A stretch of DNA of 64,000 bases from Eledone cirrhosa (taxonomy: Eukaryota). This document shows positions 40,497-59,125 of this stretch, in pieces. Below the pieces are notes generated by a model that had not been told where the DNA came from, ran no database searches, and saw only the letters and a list, made by a program, of their open reading frames with translations. The translations under genes were made by a program, and so were the position numbers. The first letter of the stretch is position 1; the number at the start of each line of letters is the position of its first letter. Location of the stretch: NCBI GenBank assembly GCA_964016885.1, contig OZ024747.1, positions 10,230,001 to 10,294,000 on the forward strand, written 5' to 3'.

Positions 40497-43400
40497 AAGT
40501 CATACTAACAACCAGAAGAGCTCTCCCATACTACAAGTCATACTAACAACCAGAAGAGCTCTCCCATACTACAAGTCATACTAACAACCAGAAGAGCTCT
40601 CCCATACTACAAGTCATACTAACAACCAGAACAGCTCTCCCATACTACAAGTCATACTAACAACCAGAACAGCTCTCCCATACTACAAGAGATACTAACA
40701 ACCAGAACAGCTCTCCCATACTACAAGTCATACTAACAACCAGAAGAGCTCTCCCATACTACAAGTCATACTAACAACCAGAAGAGCTCTCCCATACCAC
40801 AAGTCATACTAACAACCAGAACAACTCTCCCATACTACAAGTCATACTAACAACCAGAACAGCTCTCCCATACTACAAGTCATACTAACAACCAGAAGAG
40901 CTCTCCCATACTATAAGTCATACTAACAACCAGAACAACTCTCCCATACTACAAGTCATACTAACCAGAAGAGCTCTCCCATACTACAAGAGATACTAAC
41001 AACCAGAACAACTCTCCCATACTACAAGTCATACTAACAACCAGAACAGCTCTCCCATACTACAAGAGATACTAACAACTAGAACAGCTCTCCCATACTA
41101 CAAGAGATACTAACAACCAGAACAACTCTCCCATACTACAAGAGATACTAACAACCAGAAGAGCTCTCCCATACTACAAGTCATACTAACAACCAGAAGA
41201 GCTCTCCCATACTAACAACCAGAACAGCTCTCCCATACTACAAGAGATACTAACAACCAGAACAACTCTCCCATACTACAAGTCATACTAACAACCAGAA
41301 GAGCTCTCTCATACTAACAACCAGAACAGCTCTCCCATACTACAAGTCATACTAACAACCAGAACAGCTCTCCCATACTACAAGTCATACTAACAACCAG
41401 AACAACTCTCCCATACTACAAGAGATACTAACAACCAGAACAACTCTCCCATACTACAAGGCATACTAACAACCAGAACAACTCTCCCATACTACAAGTC
41501 ATACTAACAACCAGAACAGCTCTCCCATACAACAAGTCATACTAACAACCAGAACAGCTCTCCCATACTACAAGTCATACTAACAACCAGAACAACTCTC
41601 CCATACTACAAGAGATACTAACAACCAGAAGAGCTCTCCCATACTACAAGTCATACTAACAACCAGAACAGCTCTCCCATACTACAAGTCATACTAACAA
41701 CCAGAAGAGCTCTCCCATACTACAAGTCATACTAACAACCAGAAGAGCTCTCCCATACTACAAGTCATACTAACAACCAGAACAGCTCTCCCATACTACA
41801 AGTCATACTAACAGCCAGAACAGCTCTCCCATACTACAAGTCATACTAACAACCAGAACAACTCTCCCATACTACAAGAGATACTAACAACCAGAACAGC
41901 TCTCCCATACTACAAGTGATACTAACAACCGGAACCGCTCTCCCATACTACAAGTCATACTAACAACCAGAACAGCTCTCCATACTACAAGTCATACTAA
42001 CAACCAGAACAGCTCTCCCATACTACAAGTGATACTAACAACCAGAACAACTCTCCCATACTACAAGAGATACTAACAACCAGAACAGCTCTCCCATACT
42101 ACAAGTCATACTAACAACTAGAACAACTCTCCCATACTACAAGTCATACTAACAACCAGAACACTCTCCCATACTACAAGTCATACTAACAACCAGAACA
42201 GCTCTCCCATACTACAAGTCATACTAACAACCAGAACAGCTCTCCCATACTACAAGTCATACTAACAACCAGAAGAGCTCTCACATACTACAAGTCATAC
42301 TAACAGCCAGAACAGCTCTCCCATACTACAAGTCATACTAACAACCAGAACAGCTCTCCCATACTACAAGTCATACTAACAACCAGAACAGCTCTCCCAT
42401 ACTACAAGTGATACTAACAACCGGAACCGCTCTCCCATACTACAAGTCATACTAACAACCAGAACAGCTCTCCCATACTACAAGTCATACTAACAACCAG
42501 AACAGCTCTCCCATACTACAAGTCATACTAACAACCAGAACAACTCTCCCATACTACAAGAGATACTAACAACCAGAACAGCTCTCCCATACTACAAGTC
42601 ATACTAACAACCAGAACAACTCTCCCATACTACAAGTCATACTAACAACCAGAACAGCTCTCCCATACTACAAGTCATACTAACAACCAGAACAACTCTC
42701 CCATACTACAAGTCATACTAACAACCAGAACAGCTCTCCCATACTACAAGTCATACTAACAACTAGAACAACTCTCCCATACTACAAGTCATACTAACAA
42801 CCAGAACACTCTCCCATACTACAAGTCATACTAACAACCAGAACAGCTCTCCCATACTACAAGTCATACTAACAACCAGAACAGCTCTCCCATACTACAA
42901 GTCATACTAACAGCCAGAACAGCTCTCCCATACTACAAGTCATACTAACAACCAGAAGAGCTCTCCCATACTACAAGTCATACTAACAGCCAGAACAGCT
43001 CTCCCATACTACAAGTCATACTAACAACCAGAACAGCTCTCCCATACTACAAGTCATACTAACAACCAGAACAGCTCTCCCATACTACAAGTGATACTAA
43101 CAACCGGAACCGCTCTCCCATACTACAAGTCATACTAACAACCAGAACAGCTCTCCCATACTACAAGTCATACTAACAACCAGAACAGCTCTCCCATACT
43201 ACAAGTCATACTAACAACCAGAACAGCTCTCCCATACTACAAGTCATACTAACAACCAGAACAACTCTCCCATACTACAAGAGATACTAACAACCAGAAC
43301 AGCTCTCCCATACTACAAGTCATACTAACAACCAGAACAACTCTCCCATACTACAAGTCATACTAACAACCAGAACAGCTCTCCCATACTACAAGTCATA

Positions 43401-44616
43401 CTAACAACCAGAACAACTCTCCCATACTACAAGTCATACTAACAACCAGAATACTCTCCCATCCCATACTACAAGTCATACTAACAACCAGAACAGCTCT
43501 CCCATACTACAAGTCATACTAACAACCAGAACAGCTCTCCCATACTACAAGTCATACTAACAGCCAGAACAGCTCTCCCATACTACAAGTCATACTAACA
43601 ACCAGAACAGCTCTCCCATACTACAAGTCATACTAACAACCAGAACACTCTCCCATACTACAAGTCATACTAACAACCAGAAGAGCTCTCCCATACTAAC
43701 AACCAGAACAGCTCTCCCATACTACAAGTCATACTAACAACCAGAAGAGCTCTCCCATACTACAAGTCATACTAACAGCCAGAACAGCTCTCCCATACTA
43801 CAAGTCATACTAACAACCAGAACAGCTCTCCCATACTACAAGTCATACTAACAACCAGAACAGCTCTCCCATACTACAAGTCATACTAACAACCAGAACA
43901 ACTCTCCCATACTACAAGAGATACTAACAACCAGAACAACTCTCCCATACTACAAGTCATACTAACAACCAGAACAACTCTCCCATACTACAAGTCATAC
44001 TAACAACCAGAACAGCTCTCCCATACAACAAGTCATACTAACAACCAGAACAGCTCTCCCATACTACAAGTCATACTAACAACCAGAACAACTCTCCCAT
44101 ACTACAAGTCATACTAACAACCAGAACAGCTCTCCCATACTACAAGAGATACTAACAACCAGAACAACTCTCCCATACTACAAGTCATACTAACAACCAG
44201 AACAACTCTCCCATACTACAAGTCATACTAACAACCAGAACAGCTCTCCCATACTACAAGTCATACTAACAACCAGAACAACTCTCCCATACTACAAGTC
44301 ATACTAACAACCAGAACAACTCTCCCATACTACAAGTCATACTAACAACCAGAACAACTCTCCCATACTACAAGAGATACTAACAACCAGAACAGCTCTC
44401 CCATACTACAAGAGATACTAACAACCAGAACAGCTCTCCCATACTACAAGTGATACTAACAACCAGAACAGCTCTCCCATACTACAAGTCATACTAACAA
44501 CCAGAACAGCTCTCCCATACTACAAGAGATACTAACAACCAGAACACTCTCCCATACTACAAGTCATACTAACAACCAGAACAGCTCTTCCATACTACAA
44601 GTCATACTAACAACCA
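40497..44616. repeat. Large minisatellite, 38-bp unit, ~108 copies (4.1 kb), in SR-gene intron 3
   Basis: catactaacaaccagaacagctctcccatactacaagt repeated head-to-tail with single-base variants. Confidence 0.97.
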
Positions 44617-44729
44617 GTTCGACAGCAGCAACAAAACACACCAGTGAATCTCAACTGAAAGACAACTCATCACAGCTTAGAAAACTTGAAAGCTGCAGTG
44701 TGGAGAACTACATTTCACTGCCAGACAAA

Positions 44730-44956: not shown

Positions 44957-45185
44957 CGTAGGCACTTAAACTGCTGGAAATAGCTGCCAAATCACACCTT
45001 AGTGCCTTGAAAAGGCACAAGACAACATAGTCACAAATGTTGTCCTTACATACAGAAGTCTGAAAAAAGATGGGCTGGTCATAGTTGGAATGCAACCATA
45101 GGTTTGTTGGATCAGGAGTGACGTTAAAAACATAAACATAAGGTTACATATCAATAAAAGCCCCAATAAAACAAGTTTTACTTAC

Positions 45186-45289
45186 TTTTTCTGTCTCCTC
45201 TAGCAAATTCAATCTGAAGGTTCTTTCCATAAAAATTACTTGCATCCAGGTGATATAACGCATCATCAGCATCTCTAGGGTCTTCAAAT
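45186..45289 (-). CDS. SRSF10: SRSF10-like exon 3 (C-terminal half of RRM)
   Basis: Boundaries gatac|ATTT and AAAAA|gtaagt. Translates (Q)FEDPRDADDALYHLDASNFYGKNLQIEFARGDRK. Confidence 0.95.
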
Positions 45290-45767
45290 GTATCTCGTTA
45301 AGGATGTGCTTGCTTGGAAAGTTTAAAGTTCCATTTAATTTAAAAATGTGAATCATTTACCACATTTGTGATTGCCAAACCAGTGAATTCCCTTTCTTTT
45401 AAAACACAAAATCTCCTACATACATGCTAAGAGTAAAACTCAAGAAAAAAATATATATATTTTATAGCAAGTCAGCCCCCCCTTCAATGGCCAATATAGT
45501 ATTTGTTTAAAGGATACAAGTTGATTAACTTGAAATTCTCATTTATTCAGTTTTAATATTTTAAATGGGGAGGAAAAAGGTAGAATCTCTAAAGTCCAAA
45601 TGAAGAATTACTACAGGTGTAAACCACAAAGGTCTGCAGGTGGGTTGAGCAAACAATTCAGAAAAACTGAATTTATTACAAGAGAAACCTGCTGCTTTCA
45701 GTAAAGTTGTATAATAATAGTAATAATAATAATAATAATAAAAATAAAAATAGAAATAATAATAATA

Positions 45768-45982
45768 ACGGTTTCTGATTTAGGCACAAGGCCTAAATTT
45801 GGGAGGAAGGAAAAGTCGATTAAATCGATCCCAGTGCATTACTGGTACTTTATTTTATCGACCTCATAAGGATGAAAGACAAAGCTAACCTTGGTGAGAT
45901 TTAAACTGAGAACGTAAAAGGCCATAACTCTATACCACAAAGCATGTTGTCCGATGCTCTACTGATATTATCAATCCACTGA
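45768..45982 (-). mobile_element. SINE family B inside the U12 intron
   Basis: Plus strand reads actggtactttattttatcgacctcataaggatgaaagacaaagctaacc. Embedded in (TAA)n. Confidence 0.8.
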
Positions 45983-46639
45983 ATAATAATAGTAATGGAC
46001 TGAAGTAAAACTGACAAATTGTTGTCTGCAAGTGAAAAGTCATTTTTAACAGTCACTAGTAAACAATAGTGTACCAACATCAAACACTGTGTTGTACTGA
46101 GAAAGAGAAAAGAAACTTATGTAATATTTCAGTCAAATATTCTCGTCATACCCAAACCAAAATCTTCATCTTTTTAAATCTACAATTGTCAAGGTAATTA
46201 ACGTCACAAATGATAAAAATTAATTAATACAGCAGAAGAGGAAATTAATATTCAAACAAACAAAAAAAAAAAAAGAAACATTGTTTGCTTCATATAAGAC
46301 CAAGTGTAAGGTAGATGATGTCAGAGACAACACTATATCCTCCCAAATTAGACAATATCTTAATTCCTCCATCTTCCCTGATGTTTAGTTTAAGGGAAGT
46401 TGCTACAATCTCATTCAAAAGAAACGTTGTTTTGTCACTAGAATGTTTACTTTTACCCTAGATTTTAAACACAATCACTACAAAATACACCATTTTTTGT
46501 ATCTATTATTATTATTATTAATTATTACTATTATTATTATTATTACCAGTAGCAACTCCCCTTAATAGGGGCAATTTAAATATTATTATTATCATTATAT
46601 ATATTTTTTGTAAGATGGGATAGAAAGCAAAACCCCCAC

Positions 46640-47014
46640 CTGAACAGAAACTTGTCAGATGATCCAGCCACAGCTGTATATAATGAAGTAATTGCATGTC
46701 TGGATATTATATCTTCAAACTCTTGACTTGCTTGAAACTTGCTATTTTCTGAATCTTGTCTTGTATTGGGACAGTAAACCAACAGCACTAGACTTCCCGA
46801 CATCTTCGATGCCTCTGGCATGAACCTCCAACCATTACAACTTTGTAGTTTTTCGGTATCTGTAGTACTTGCATACCATGCATCGCTAGCTCTTTGCTCA
46901 AAGCTTGAGGGGAACATTTGCCCGTTTTGTTTGTCTGTCCATTGCTCTTGCTAAGGTTAACCTTGACCACTTAGGAGGAGGCGAGCCTTGTTAGTATTTA
47001 TCTTTACTTGAGCT
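46640..47014 (-). other. Candidate U2-type poison cassette exon nested in the U12 intron
   Basis: Boundaries tctttcgtttctttttattag|AGCTC and TTCAG|gtgggg. 375 nt of non-repetitive, higher-GC sequence with stop codons in all three frames within the first ~60 nt. Confidence 0.6.
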
Positions 47015-47937
47015 CTAATAAAAAGAAACGAAAGACTGGCATAAAAATTTGATCATACCAAAACATTATTACAAACATTACAAAAGGTAAAAGGATTGCT
47101 TCTAAATACATAGGGAGTGAGAAATACAATTATATTTAATAAGTTCAAGGACTTAATGCTCCAGTTAGTATGATTTGTTTATAAAGGAGTGTTGAGGTAA
47201 AATAGGGACAGCTAATGATGCAAGTAAGTGAGTACTTGTACAGATTAAATATTTCATTTACTTATTAAATATCAAATATCAAGATTGAAAATTCAGAAAA
47301 TACATTCACAAGCATTTCAGAATATTATTCAAGAGCTAAAACCTTTCCCCAAATTTCAAGAGTTGTATTCCAGTTTGGAAGTGAAACCATTAACCAGACA
47401 TGCATTATTTTGACAATACAATTTATAAATCCAGTTTAATAGCACTATCTTTTTCTTTCTTGAACATTCTCAGAGGCATTTTTAATACAATAAAAATTAC
47501 ACACAAATTTAAATCATAATCAAAACATTTGTTTTGTGCGTAATAAGGAAAAAGAAATGATTTAATAATTGTCAGTTGTGCAGGTTTTCCAAGGAGAAAA
47601 GCTAACAACTATTCAATGAAATAATGCTACATCACAACAAACCATATCACCATTGTGGTACAATTCAGTGAGGTTTGTCTTAAATATACTCTAATTGGTA
47701 TCTAATGAAAGATTAATCTGGACAACAGTAGAAACAAAATCCTTAATAGACTAAAGAGAAATAGTTGCAGCAATATTATAAAGTTTCCAGTGCCATTTAA
47801 ATGATGGAGGAGGAAGACGAAATATTTTACTCATCCATCATAAATTCAATGTAAAGATTAAATATTTCTCAGAAGAGAAAACTAGAAAGAAAGAAAAAAA
47901 TAGTGTGACAAGTTGTTGTGATAATTAAACTGGATCA

Positions 47938-48126
<189 letters not shown>

Positions 48127-48667
48127 TTATATATATACTTGGATATATATATATATTACTACATTGAGTAGGCAACTTTTTTTTTTTTTTATTTAGTAAG
48201 GCCCTAAACTAACCTCTTGTATAAGTAAAAAGAGATTTAAAACTGTTGATACACAATTTGGAGCAGAGATACATATAAACACCAAACAAAGGTATCCACC
48301 TTCCAATATCTTCAGCCAGACCATTAAACTTCCATGTATCTCAAAAATTGTTATAGGTCATTCTCCCATTCTTCAGATTCCACATCATGTGATTAAAAGC
48401 AAATAAGATATAAAATACAACACTCAGATTGTCTTAGTATTTAAACACAGCCAAGAATATTGAAACATGTCTTTCTTACACCAAAATATCTGTCACATTC
48501 TATCTTTTATTAGTTCTATTTATTGGACTTCATACATGATGGGATACCCTTATTAAGGATTTCACCAATTATATTGATTCCAGTACATTTTCTGGTACTT
48601 ATTTCATTGATACAAGAAAAAGGAACAGAAAGTTGATATGAAAAGGATTTAAACTCAAAATGTAAAA

Positions 48668-55615: not shown

Positions 55616-58600
55616 AAATATATTAAATAGTTTAACGAGCTACTTCATGTTTCTGGGAAGCTGAATATATGAGAGAGACTACAAAGTTCTAGCTAGAAAA
55701 AGGTGCCAGAGTTTTAATGGAGGTGTGAAAATCTCTGACCCTTTATTCTGTATCTTCCTGACAGTAGACACTACACCAATGTAACTATTTCCTTCTTGAT
55801 AGTTACTGAAACTAGTTTGGACAAGTCACAAAGGATATAACAGTGGAAGAAGGAGAAAGAAAATAAAAACATAAAGCTAGGAGGAAAGGAAATAGGAGAT
55901 AAGAATGAGTAGAGGTGTGAGGGCGGGGACAAGACAAATGGGCAGGGGCTATTCTGGTATGGTTATTTTAACTGTAATTTGAGCAGGAACCAGATTTACA
56001 AACAGCAAAAGGAAACTATAAAAAAAAAACAATTTAAATAGAATTTTCTTTTAAATTGTGTTAAATTTTATATTTAAGTAGGTGATCCAAGACTGAAATT
56101 CTAACCATCACAACTTGGATGATGTAAAGAATATATTTACAAAGGAGGGGGTGAATGTTAGTGCTTAGTTATAGCCTCCCAGCCATGAGGTGTGTATATG
56201 CTAAGTTCACATCTATTTTTTATAGTTGTTTTCCTATTTTGGACAGTTCAGTGTGCAGAACAACTGCATAATAACAATCTAAATAGCAGTTGCCTGCATT
56301 CTTATTAATTATTGCTGCTAATAATAAATATTTTTTAAATTAGACAAGATTTTTTTTTTCTTTCTGTTTTACGAAAGTTTTCCTTTATTTTAGGGGTCAA
56401 TTACTTGGCATTAGAAATATTCAAGGTATACCTTTATGACATAATAGCTAGGGGTTCAGAGTGTGTACCAGCAATTTTATTTATTTACTTAACTGACCAT
56501 CAAACTGTGTAATAGAGCGGCCTGCTAGAAATAGCAGCCAAATTACCTGTATTTTTCCTTATTTACTGATCTGACCAACACACTCAATCACTGGACAAGA
56601 AACAAGGAGAACTATATGATAGAGCCACCCGATAGAAATAGCAGCCGATACACCTCGCGCTTTCAAAAAAAAAAAAAAAAGACGACTCATTAAATAATGT
56701 AATCCTAGATACATTTACAAACCAGACTCGTATATTTATCGCTAACTAATTAAAGTTTAATTATTCATTAAGGTTTGAAAAATCTGGACATTATAAGAAA
56801 AATATTGTCTTTGGAGATCCAGCAGGATCAACTGGAGGCAGTTGCTTCTGACCCACTGAAAGGTGAGTATGAGGACTCTGTCAGAGATAAGTGAGCGAAT
56901 AAGATAGATATATCCTACTTGTTTTGCTAGTAACAAGTGCCACTTAAGACAAGTTAGGGCTTGTGAGATGGTGTATGGGTCATAGACAGAAGTAGCCATA
57001 TGAAATACTGTAACAAAAGTATGTAGACATGTTCGTAAAGTTGTTTTGTTCCATATTACACCAGGAACTAAACGATGAACTTGTTTTTACTGTTTATGTC
57101 GATAACATGATTTTGTCAGAATTCCGATGAAAACAACCATATTTCCTCCGACAAAGACATTGAAATAATGTCGTCTTGTACATTTCTAGAAAATCTATTA
57201 TGTTCCCCTTAAATATCTTATTCCTACCATAAGGCAACTTCTTTACCCAACATTAAATATCTAAGAATAATAAATCAAACCGAAATAGTTCTTCTTTAAT
57301 TATTTCTATCATTAATCAAGCATATTATTGCATATGTATGTATTCTTTTATAAAACCCTTTCCAAACCAAACCCGGTTCCTTTATAAAAAGCTTTATTCT
57401 AAATTTATATTTATGAAAAAAAAACTTTAAGTTATGTTCCAAACACTAACTTTAATAATCAGAAATGTTTATTACTAAATCCTTCCAAATTTGTTATTAG
57501 TTTCTTCAAAATTAATTGAAATATCTTCGTTAAAAATATGGTAACGGGTTTGTATCTTCCCATTAAACTGATATCAGAAACTTCTTGTGGTAACTAACCT
57601 CTACTTCTAATGACAGGTCCTCTTTCTAAAGGTTTGGGCTTTTGAAAAATATTTTATATAAGAATAATTTCAGAAACTTTAAAAAGCAATTCTATAAACA
57701 ATCAATGAAAAAGTAATTTAACTCAATCCCTCGAAATTAAAAACAACCCTAAGTAATTTAAACATAAGCTAGACTAAATAATAAAGGGTACATGATTGCT
57801 TTCTCATTACTTTCCAACTTTAATATTGCCTTACAGAATAATGTTTCCTTAAAATATATTAGTGGTTGAGTATACCGTATCTACCACTGTTTTAAAAAGG
57901 AAACTTTCTAATATTTATTCTTGCATATTAAATATATGTCCATCTCCAGTCATTTAATTATTATTTAACTAAAAATAAAATATAATATATTCCATTAGAA
58001 ATATGGCTACGAAAGAATGTGGTAATAAATCGTTTCATTAACCTATTTCATACCAAATATTTATAGTAATAAACTAAAGTTATTCTACAAAATCCTTCCA
58101 AATTCTTGTTTATTGAAACTATTATTTTATTAGAAATGTATTCATAAAAAGTATTTATTTAAAGACAATAGAGGCTTGTTGAGGTGATTGTTACTGAAAT
58201 AATGAGGTGTTTTGTTTAAAACAACGCTTGACTTCGAAAACAAGACAAACCATTCAGTGTTTTGTCTCTCCATCATCACCAACAATAATATAACATGATA
58301 GGGAACATGGGGGAGATTCCTCGATAGTCAGAAAATAATGTCACATTTCAGCGATTTCAGTATCCACACGTGTTAACCTTTACTTGGTTGTAGTTTGTAA
58401 ACTGAAAACTGCGTCACTGAATCAATATATATATAAATATATACACACATAACAATCTCATCTGGAGACTCATATATCTAACTTTACTCACAAAATATAA
58501 ATGCATTAAATTTTTTTTTAATTTCACTAATTTGTAAATAAGGTTGTAGATTGCTTTATTAATATTTTAATTTCCACAGGCCCCCAAAATATGTATTATG

Positions 58601-59060: not shown

Positions 59061-59125
59061 CTCGTTCCTTCGGGAACATTTCGTACATAGAGAGAAGTAT
59101 TTGGAGGCCGGGAGTAACGCGACAT
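59061..59125 (-). CDS. SRSF10: SRSF10/SRSF12-like SR protein, exon 1
   Basis: Reverse complement reads ATGTCGCGTTAC...ACGAG|gtaagt. Translates MSRYSRPPNTSLYVRNVPEGT(R), close to the vertebrate SRSF10 N-terminus MSRYLRPPNTSLFVRNV. Confidence 0.95.

Follow-up and report, generated by a model that had tools for sequence, protein, structure and literature searches.

An element in the AT-AC intron of octopus SRSF10 as the probable start of an unproductive exon

Is unproductive splicing inside the minor (AT-AC) intron of SRSF10 peculiar to vertebrates, or is it an older arrangement of animal genes? In mammals, exon 3 contains an enhancer to which SRSF10 binds, promoting the non-coding form, and loss of the minor spliceosome lowers the coding form (passages of PMC7244321); the exon has also been reviewed (PMC8522700 and PMC8329584, in part). 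The loop, which these texts describe only in mammals, is the best-described link between minor-spliceosome activity and general SR-protein levels. In a literature search made up mostly of titles and open-access main texts, with novelty weighed against parts of PMC7244321, PMC8329584, PMC7726792, PMC10639083 and PMC4379411, no paper describing an unproductive exon in SRSF10 of an invertebrate was found. A first-pass annotation of an octopus locus had proposed a poison exon of 375 nt within this intron. From that proposal a functional, conserved, stop-containing element survives, probably entered through a U2 acceptor and excluding the joint between exons 2 and 3, but probably not a discrete 375-nt cassette as the main form. 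Our main reading, to which we give a probability of roughly 60%, is that the block is the start of an unproductive SRSF10 exon that is spliced with exon 2 skipped and is the ancestral counterpart of mammalian exon 3. What is new beyond this locus is that the SRSF10 minor introns of 12 other lineages all carry a cluster rich in CAAG and TAAAG. If the layout holds across animals, it would be among very few unproductive splicing events so conserved, invisible to alignment-based searches, and it would have a bearing on the question whether regulation is what keeps minor introns in place. Exact predicted junctions are provided for invertebrates.

The gene, its minor intron and the conserved block

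The gene lies on the minus strand of the window (the whole stretch of 64,000 nt that was analysed) and is SRSF10/12-like: with tblastn, an SRSF10-like protein of Octopus vulgaris finds six exon pieces, which match it at 92-100% and mark the animal as an octopod (Table 1). Its AT-AC intron has the U12 donor consensus and a branch motif 7 nt before the AC. Contigs of 4 of the 24 listed sequencing runs (X24, X1, X9 and X7) were compared with the window over 44960-48660; X24 is near-identical to it, and X1, X9 and X7 represent three related organisms. These contigs are taken as RNA by guess, and the word share of the runs, 0.15-0.17, agrees with the value of 0.166 that exon 2, exon 3 and the block would be expected to give. 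The minor intron 47971-45290 is spliced in octopus SRSF10, as the joint of exons 2 and 3 across it is seen in three of the four runs, X7 being the one without it. Many database SRSF10 models (P0004-P0008, P0011, P0012, P0014, P0025, P0028 and others) read through the U12 donor, which can be recognized by YP after the exon 2 peptide; this read-through is a recurrent annotation error, marking the same intron in molluscs, annelids and fish.

Table 1. Features of the SRSF10-like locus in the window, in the order of transcription
Feature	Position	Strand	Remarks
Exon 1, coding part	59061..59125	-	65 nt; AG end before a consensus GT donor; likely partner of the 47014 acceptor
Exon 2	47972..48076	-	105 nt; U12 AT donor at its end
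U12-type AT-AC intron	45290..47971	-	2682 nt
Internal U2 acceptor (AG) with its pyrimidine tract and branch region	47015..47110	-	conserved; rank 2/130 AGs; contig boundary at 47016 in 3/4 runs
Ultraconserved 5' part of the putative unproductive exon, candidate equivalent of vertebrate exon 3	46609..47014	-	conservation; single copy
Probable composite exon, acceptor to exon 3 donor	45186..47014	-	1829 nt; X1 contig; level depth in X9 and X24
CAAG/TAAAG/AAAGA cluster, candidate splicing-enhancer array	46711..47011	-	leave-one-out motifs
Predicted premature stop in the exon 1 frame	46957..46959	-	40 codons in; 1771 nt before the exon 3 donor; depends on the likely exon 1 junction
Degenerate U12-donor-like site	46700..46707	-	3 nt past the motif cluster; located where vertebrate exon 3 has its seldom used minor donor
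GT donor of the first-pass annotation	46634..46639	-	same in relatives; crossed by contigs; at most a minor exit
Full-consensus U12-donor-like site	45509..45517	-	228 nt before the intron end
Exon 3	45186..45289	-	104 nt
Exon 4	from 40482	-	of the SRSF10/12-like gene

As described at first, the block spans 47014-46640 between an acceptor and a GT, has stops near the acceptor in all three frames (at nt 22-24, 56-58 and 9-11) and contains two purine-rich motifs, at 46764 and 46939. It was also said to be non-repetitive, and indeed it has one match in G000, by a copy count that skips common words and is thus a lower bound; a transposon was rejected on this single match. The GC content of the block is 0.41 as against 0.29 in the remaining intron, and CAAG occurs 13 times in its 375 nt, 6 times in the other 2307 nt of the intron and not once on the opposite strand. 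By a simple, hand-made pyrimidine score, the AG at 47014 ranks second of the 130 in the intron. The GT donor at 46639 is present but weaker than had been implied, with 5/7 consensus positions and in a tie with two other GTs. The published SRSF10 motifs AAAGACAAA and AGAGAV (PMC8522700, in part) overlap the enriched words, and neither occurs exactly in 45186-48100. Searches of Rfam (0 matches for the block) and of PDB (nothing informative) were negative.

The note had suggested looking for a conservation peak at 46640-47014. Such a peak is found among close, octopod-like relatives, and it extends to about 47110-46609. The 408 nt of 46609-47016 contain a single substitution and 5 gap letters in X1, and as many in X9, whereas exon 3 shows 10 and 9 substitutions, respectively, in its 104 nt; the block is far more conserved than this coding exon. 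For X1 the contrast with exon 3 (1/408 vs 10/104) has a p of 8e-7 and that with the upstream intron 47111-47461 (24/351) a p of 8e-8, X9 has 23/129 downstream (46365-46493), and Fisher p values range from 4e-6 to 2e-14 across such contrasts, all of which amount to about a single contrast because X1, X9 and X7 share most of their differences. The upstream border is sharp in X1, where at most 1 of the 25 substitutions in 46987-47461 lies below 47111. Exon 2 has 0 differences in 109 nt in the assemblies of two relatives, which, set against the 9-10/104 of exon 3, suggests a regulatory constraint on exon 2 itself. Within the block there is nearly no synonymous change, and X1 and X7, two of the three relatives, have a one-base insertion; together these point to constraint at the nucleotide level rather than to coding. 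Elsewhere in the intron, a second conserved patch at 47464-47318 (4 substitutions listed in about 144 nt, in X1) opens with a purine-rich 30-mer resembling, at 87%, a motif that is conserved in annelid-like introns (E 0.002), and no sign of splicing was seen in this patch.

Entry into and exit from the element

Two questions then arise. Which donor is joined to the acceptor at 47014, and where does the exon that begins there end? In X24, X1 and X9, the contig that begins at 47016 shares 30 letters with a contig whose end is at 46987; this overlap can be read as a branch of the assembly graph, at which a second path joins at the 47014 AG. Contig depth, which is not an expression level, steps up at this point from 6.4 to 24.1 in X24 (3.8-fold), from 74.9 to 896.6 in X1 (12-fold) and from 14.1 to 64.3 in X9 (4.6-fold). 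The known acceptor of exon 2 bears the same two-letter branch signature, at 48078. The contig of X7, one run of four, passes the acceptor unbroken. Among the 15 of 27 joints listed there is no junction into 47014, and the stretch compared, 44960-48660, excludes exon 1. The letters shared at the branch need a partner ending in AG, which holds for exon 1 and not for exon 2. There is no strong GT donor in 47971-47015, where the sole AG-GT is a poor one; one other AG-GT candidate lies in intron 1, at 56546. Contigs of X24 and X1 are continuous over 46987-47999 at low depth. Because no strong GT stands between the U12 donor and the acceptor, exon 1 is probably joined straight to 47014 with exon 2 skipped, and we regard this as the likely pairing and the best inference. 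A hybrid AT-AG splice from exon 2 to 47014 was considered and rejected, since exon 2 ends in CA while the branch shares AG; no such joint is found among the 15 of 27 listed. The twintron-like nesting that had been envisaged is probably not the route either, for no internal donor upstream of 47014 is supported in contigs or in sequence.

As for the exit, the GT at 46639 had been taken as the end of the exon, a role that is not supported for the main form: contigs cross it in 4/4 runs, no joint leaves from it among those listed, and the Logan protein P0001 reads through it. In X1 a single contig (record 2) covers the whole way from 47016 into exon 3, and in X9 (64.3, 62.5) and X24 (24.1, 23.3) there is no change of depth as far as exon 3. 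This reading-through suggests that the main form is probably the exon of 1829 nt, 47014-45186, with a stop after 40 codons, and that the 46639 GT is at most a minor exit; contigs lose rare forms. In X7 there are two contig breaks within 46600-46700, near 46700 and, at an A-run, near 46610, where depth drops from 292 to 197; an allele, an editing site or an RNA 3' end are candidates. A search with the truncated peptide of exon 1 plus block matched only an unrelated repeat protein. Neither of the two U12-donor-like sites, 46700..46707 and 45509..45517, is used by a joint among the 15 of 27 listed. The latter sits in a short island, 45549-45498 on the minus strand, that aligns in three relatives, and similar sites lie 225, 234 and 188 nt before the intron end in the loci L031, L045 and L006 from other animals. 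Overall, 7 internal U12-like sites were observed as against 2.3 expected, an excess that is weak because 5/7 fall on the opposite strand.

Could the block nevertheless be the discrete cassette of 375 nt (47014-46640), joined as exon 1-block-exon 4 and serving as the main or a functional unproductive isoform? Its GT is unchanged in relatives, conservation stops about 30 nt beyond it, annelid-like clusters close with a conserved GT donor, and a decaying form could be too rare for contigs. The fall of X7 depth would fit too, but that break lies at about 46600-46617, off the donor, and the weakness of the donor, the crossings in all four runs, the level depth of X9 and X24, the one contig of X1 and the read-through of P0001 make the cassette decidedly unlikely. 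It is more improbable again that the block is an intronic platform on which bound proteins delay or tune removal of the minor intron (a detained intron), the branch at 47016 being a by-product or an effect of assembly. Contigs with the intron retained in all four runs, the lack of a junction into 47014 among the 15 of 27 joints listed and the unbranched X7 contig would agree with this. Against it, three separate assemblies branch exactly at the AG, where depth rises 4- to 12-fold, and acceptors head the cluster across lineages. Finally, a coding exon, a transposon remnant or the partner strand of an RNA-editing site can hardly be entertained. A stop-free frame of 124 codons overlaps the block, and cephalopods have conserved RNA structure around edited sites. 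The substitution pattern and the one-base insertion do not look like coding, however, and P0001, the single protein match, comes from a close relative; the block is single-copy, folds no better than chance would have it (z -0.03), forms no duplex with exon 2 or 3 and lacks an Rfam match.

The layout in other animals

Is this arrangement shared? With a pattern made of the exon 2 end and the U12 donor, 90 metagenome loci were collected, of which 88 are SRSF10-like (L067 and L089 were dropped) and 50 of these 88 extend to exon 3; the sampling is restricted to genes that retain the minor intron. Twelve of them serve as lineage representatives: every BLAST group in which the intron is complete supplies one, except the large annelid-like group, which supplies two. 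Their best matches point to amniote (L071), tunicate-like (L027), mollusc-like (L031), coral-like (L008) and annelid-like (L006, L045, L046, L014 and L050), while L010, L041 and L043 carry no label, have at most 74% identity to 37 named proteins and, at a guess, may be from sponges.

The most strand-biased words in these 12 introns, octopus excluded, are CAAG, TCAAG, TAAAG and AAAGA. The motif idea arose from viewing the loci, the motifs themselves being learned leave-one-out, and with such motifs the best 300-nt window beats local dinucleotide shuffles in 13/13 introns (p at most 0.01), with 15-31 hits per best window as against 0-11 in flanking DNA, some flanks being short. For octopus, motifs learned from the other 12 lineages give 22 hits in the best 300 nt, compared with shuffle maxima of 13-15; this window, which opens at the acceptor, outscores every other on the minus strand of the 64 kb, and a plus-strand tandem array comes close to it. 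A 4.1-kb array with a 38-nt unit (40497-44617, 109.5 copies) occupies most of the intron after exon 3, and the same CAAG/TAAAG-type motifs abound in it on the opposite strand. In 10/13 introns the AG immediately before the cluster is one of the two best-ranked in that intron (combined p for an acceptor at the cluster start 2e-4, or 5e-4 without octopus), and sense exceeds antisense motif count in 51/51 complete introns, many of them redundant. Seven partial loci from distinct lineages were also inspected: L012 is positive, L007 and L040 are ambiguous, L057 is negative, and L053, L064 and L086 are too short. The intron of L057 is of about 110 nt and lacks a motif cluster, and the minor intron of L045 ends in AG instead of AC.

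The amniote locus provides an anchor. The cluster of L071 is the published exon 3, since its BsrGI site ends at +16 in agreement with the methods of PMC7244321, a source which, in the part at hand, also describes a mouse minigene keeping 356 nt of exon 3. In L071 the exon is rich in GA over nt 17-60, has a GTAAGT donor on its upstream side and is followed by a U12-like site at +363, as against those 356 nt. The motif test therefore finds a known element, and the octopus block by the same rule; the purine-rich 5' enhancer has its match in the motif cluster common to octopus and L071 exon 3. In two annelid-like paralog groups, with anchors picked after the alignments had been viewed, the acceptor is kept in 14/15 loci (7 CAG, 7 TAG) and 10/10, and the cluster is closed by a conserved GT donor in 15/15 and 10/10. 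The upstream GT donor is absent in 7/15 and 3/10 loci of these groups, so skipping of exon 2 may be common. Four coral-like loci have two blocks led by acceptors with GTAAGT between them; in L008, L021, L038 and L056 an extra conserved block occupies the last 400 nt up to the branch point. A U12-like site lies 250-420 nt past the acceptor in 4/13 introns (octopus, L071, L031 and L045; p 0.016 for a window chosen post hoc). By the sequence features compared, other animals share the layout of acceptor plus motifs. The octopus block gives no alignment with other lineages beyond that of shuffles (best p 0.015 of 13 tests).

Whether the circuit is ancestral or convergent had been left as an alternative. 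The evidence leans towards an ancestral origin, one deeper than bilaterians because of the coral-like loci, although alignable sequence that would serve as proof is lacking. Independent origins of a functional unproductive exon in octopus and other lineages, driven by a shared binder and a slow intron, would account for the absence of linear homology and for 3' ends that vary by lineage (GT donor, U12-like site or poly(A) site), and the unproductive splicing of most SR genes arose independently according to the part of PMC4379411 consulted. With a cluster in all 13 representatives with complete introns, coral-like ones included, many gains would be needed, and the starts of the coral-like and octopus exons look alike, if only as a post hoc impression; we consider independent origins unlikely. 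Parsimony favours ancestry. Most likely, then, a poison-exon module of ancestral animals was rewired in octopus to skip exon 2. A broader version, which we advance tentatively and a little short of even odds, holds that the SRSF10 minor-intron poison exon is older than the split of corals and bilaterians and possibly as old as all animals, an animal-wide gauge of minor-spliceosome capacity with a grammar that was kept and a wiring that was swapped by lineage. The grammar would be the U2 acceptor with its CAAG/TAAAG cloud, not alignable sequence. The wiring would be a competing donor and a poly(A) site in mammals, a GT-closed cassette in clitellate-like worms, and the exon 2 skip with an extended exon in octopus; the role as a gauge would be one reason why this minor intron persisted.

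Proposed mechanism and relation to known systems

A possible outline of the process in octopus is as follows. The AT donor of exon 2 would be usable by the minor spliceosome alone. When recognition by the minor spliceosome is slow, or when abundant SRSF10 occupies the CAAG/AAAG array, the exon 1 donor would pair with 47014, a candidate protein on the motif array helping this acceptor. As no good donor follows 47014, the remaining minor intron would be kept and the exon would extend to the donor of exon 3. Its predicted stop comes after 40 codons and, given the likely exon 1 junction, lies 1771 nt and thus >50 nt upstream of the next junction, a placement that usually sets off nonsense-mediated decay; the transcript would be destroyed or held back. 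In this way the capacity of the minor spliceosome would determine SRSF10 output, and the level of SRSF10 itself would damp it. Since the mammalian event is temperature-sensitive (PMC7726792 and PMC8522700, in part), the octopus element is a candidate temperature switch in cold-blooded animals.

How does this compare with systems already described? In the U11-binding splicing enhancer (USSE) of SNRNP48 and RNPC3 (PMC8329584, in part), too, a U2 acceptor that leads to an unproductive isoform is followed downstream by a U12-donor-like site without donor function. USSE is a tandem pair of consensus sites, whereas octopus has two single sites 1190 nt apart, the one at 46707 degenerate and the one at 45517 consensus but 1.5 kb away, and in octopus more U11 would favour the dead-end form. 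In the prospero twintron of Drosophila (the same source), the major and minor spliceosomes also compete within one AT-AC intron that has a purine-rich enhancer; there the U2 intron lies wholly within the other and each product is a coding one, whereas the U2 intron of octopus would begin ahead of exon 2 and extend into the minor intron. The ultraconserved poison exons of SR genes, such as that of SRSF5 (PMC4379411, in part), resemble the octopus element in that stop-containing alternative sequence exceeds coding exons in conservation. The SRSF5 event is conserved across animals and in fungi according to the same partial text; in contrast to exons of that type, the element described here lies in a minor intron, and what several phyla have in common is its layout and a cloud of motifs instead of sequence that can be aligned. 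In a term search of the main text of PMC4379411, SRSF10 and U12 were not mentioned.

The closest relative is mammalian SRSF10 exon 3. The proposed comparison with the vertebrate exon holds for position and make-up, which are equivalent, and fails for linear sequence, where no similarity is found. Both systems have the same gene, the same AT-AC intron, an internal U2 acceptor, a purine-rich exon of about 300-360 nt with a U12-donor-like site at its end and an early stop, and in both the productive minor-spliced joint is excluded. Mammals have a competing GT donor downstream of exon 2, a place at which no strong GT is found in octopus. They also have a dominant poly(A) site in exon 3, whereas in octopus AATAAA and ATTAAA are absent between 47014 and 45855 and contigs continue to exon 3. 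Octopus likely skips exon 2 and extends the exon to the donor of the next coding exon. With these two defining features absent, it is to be regarded as a variant of the mammalian module, one that may run the same loop with different wiring.
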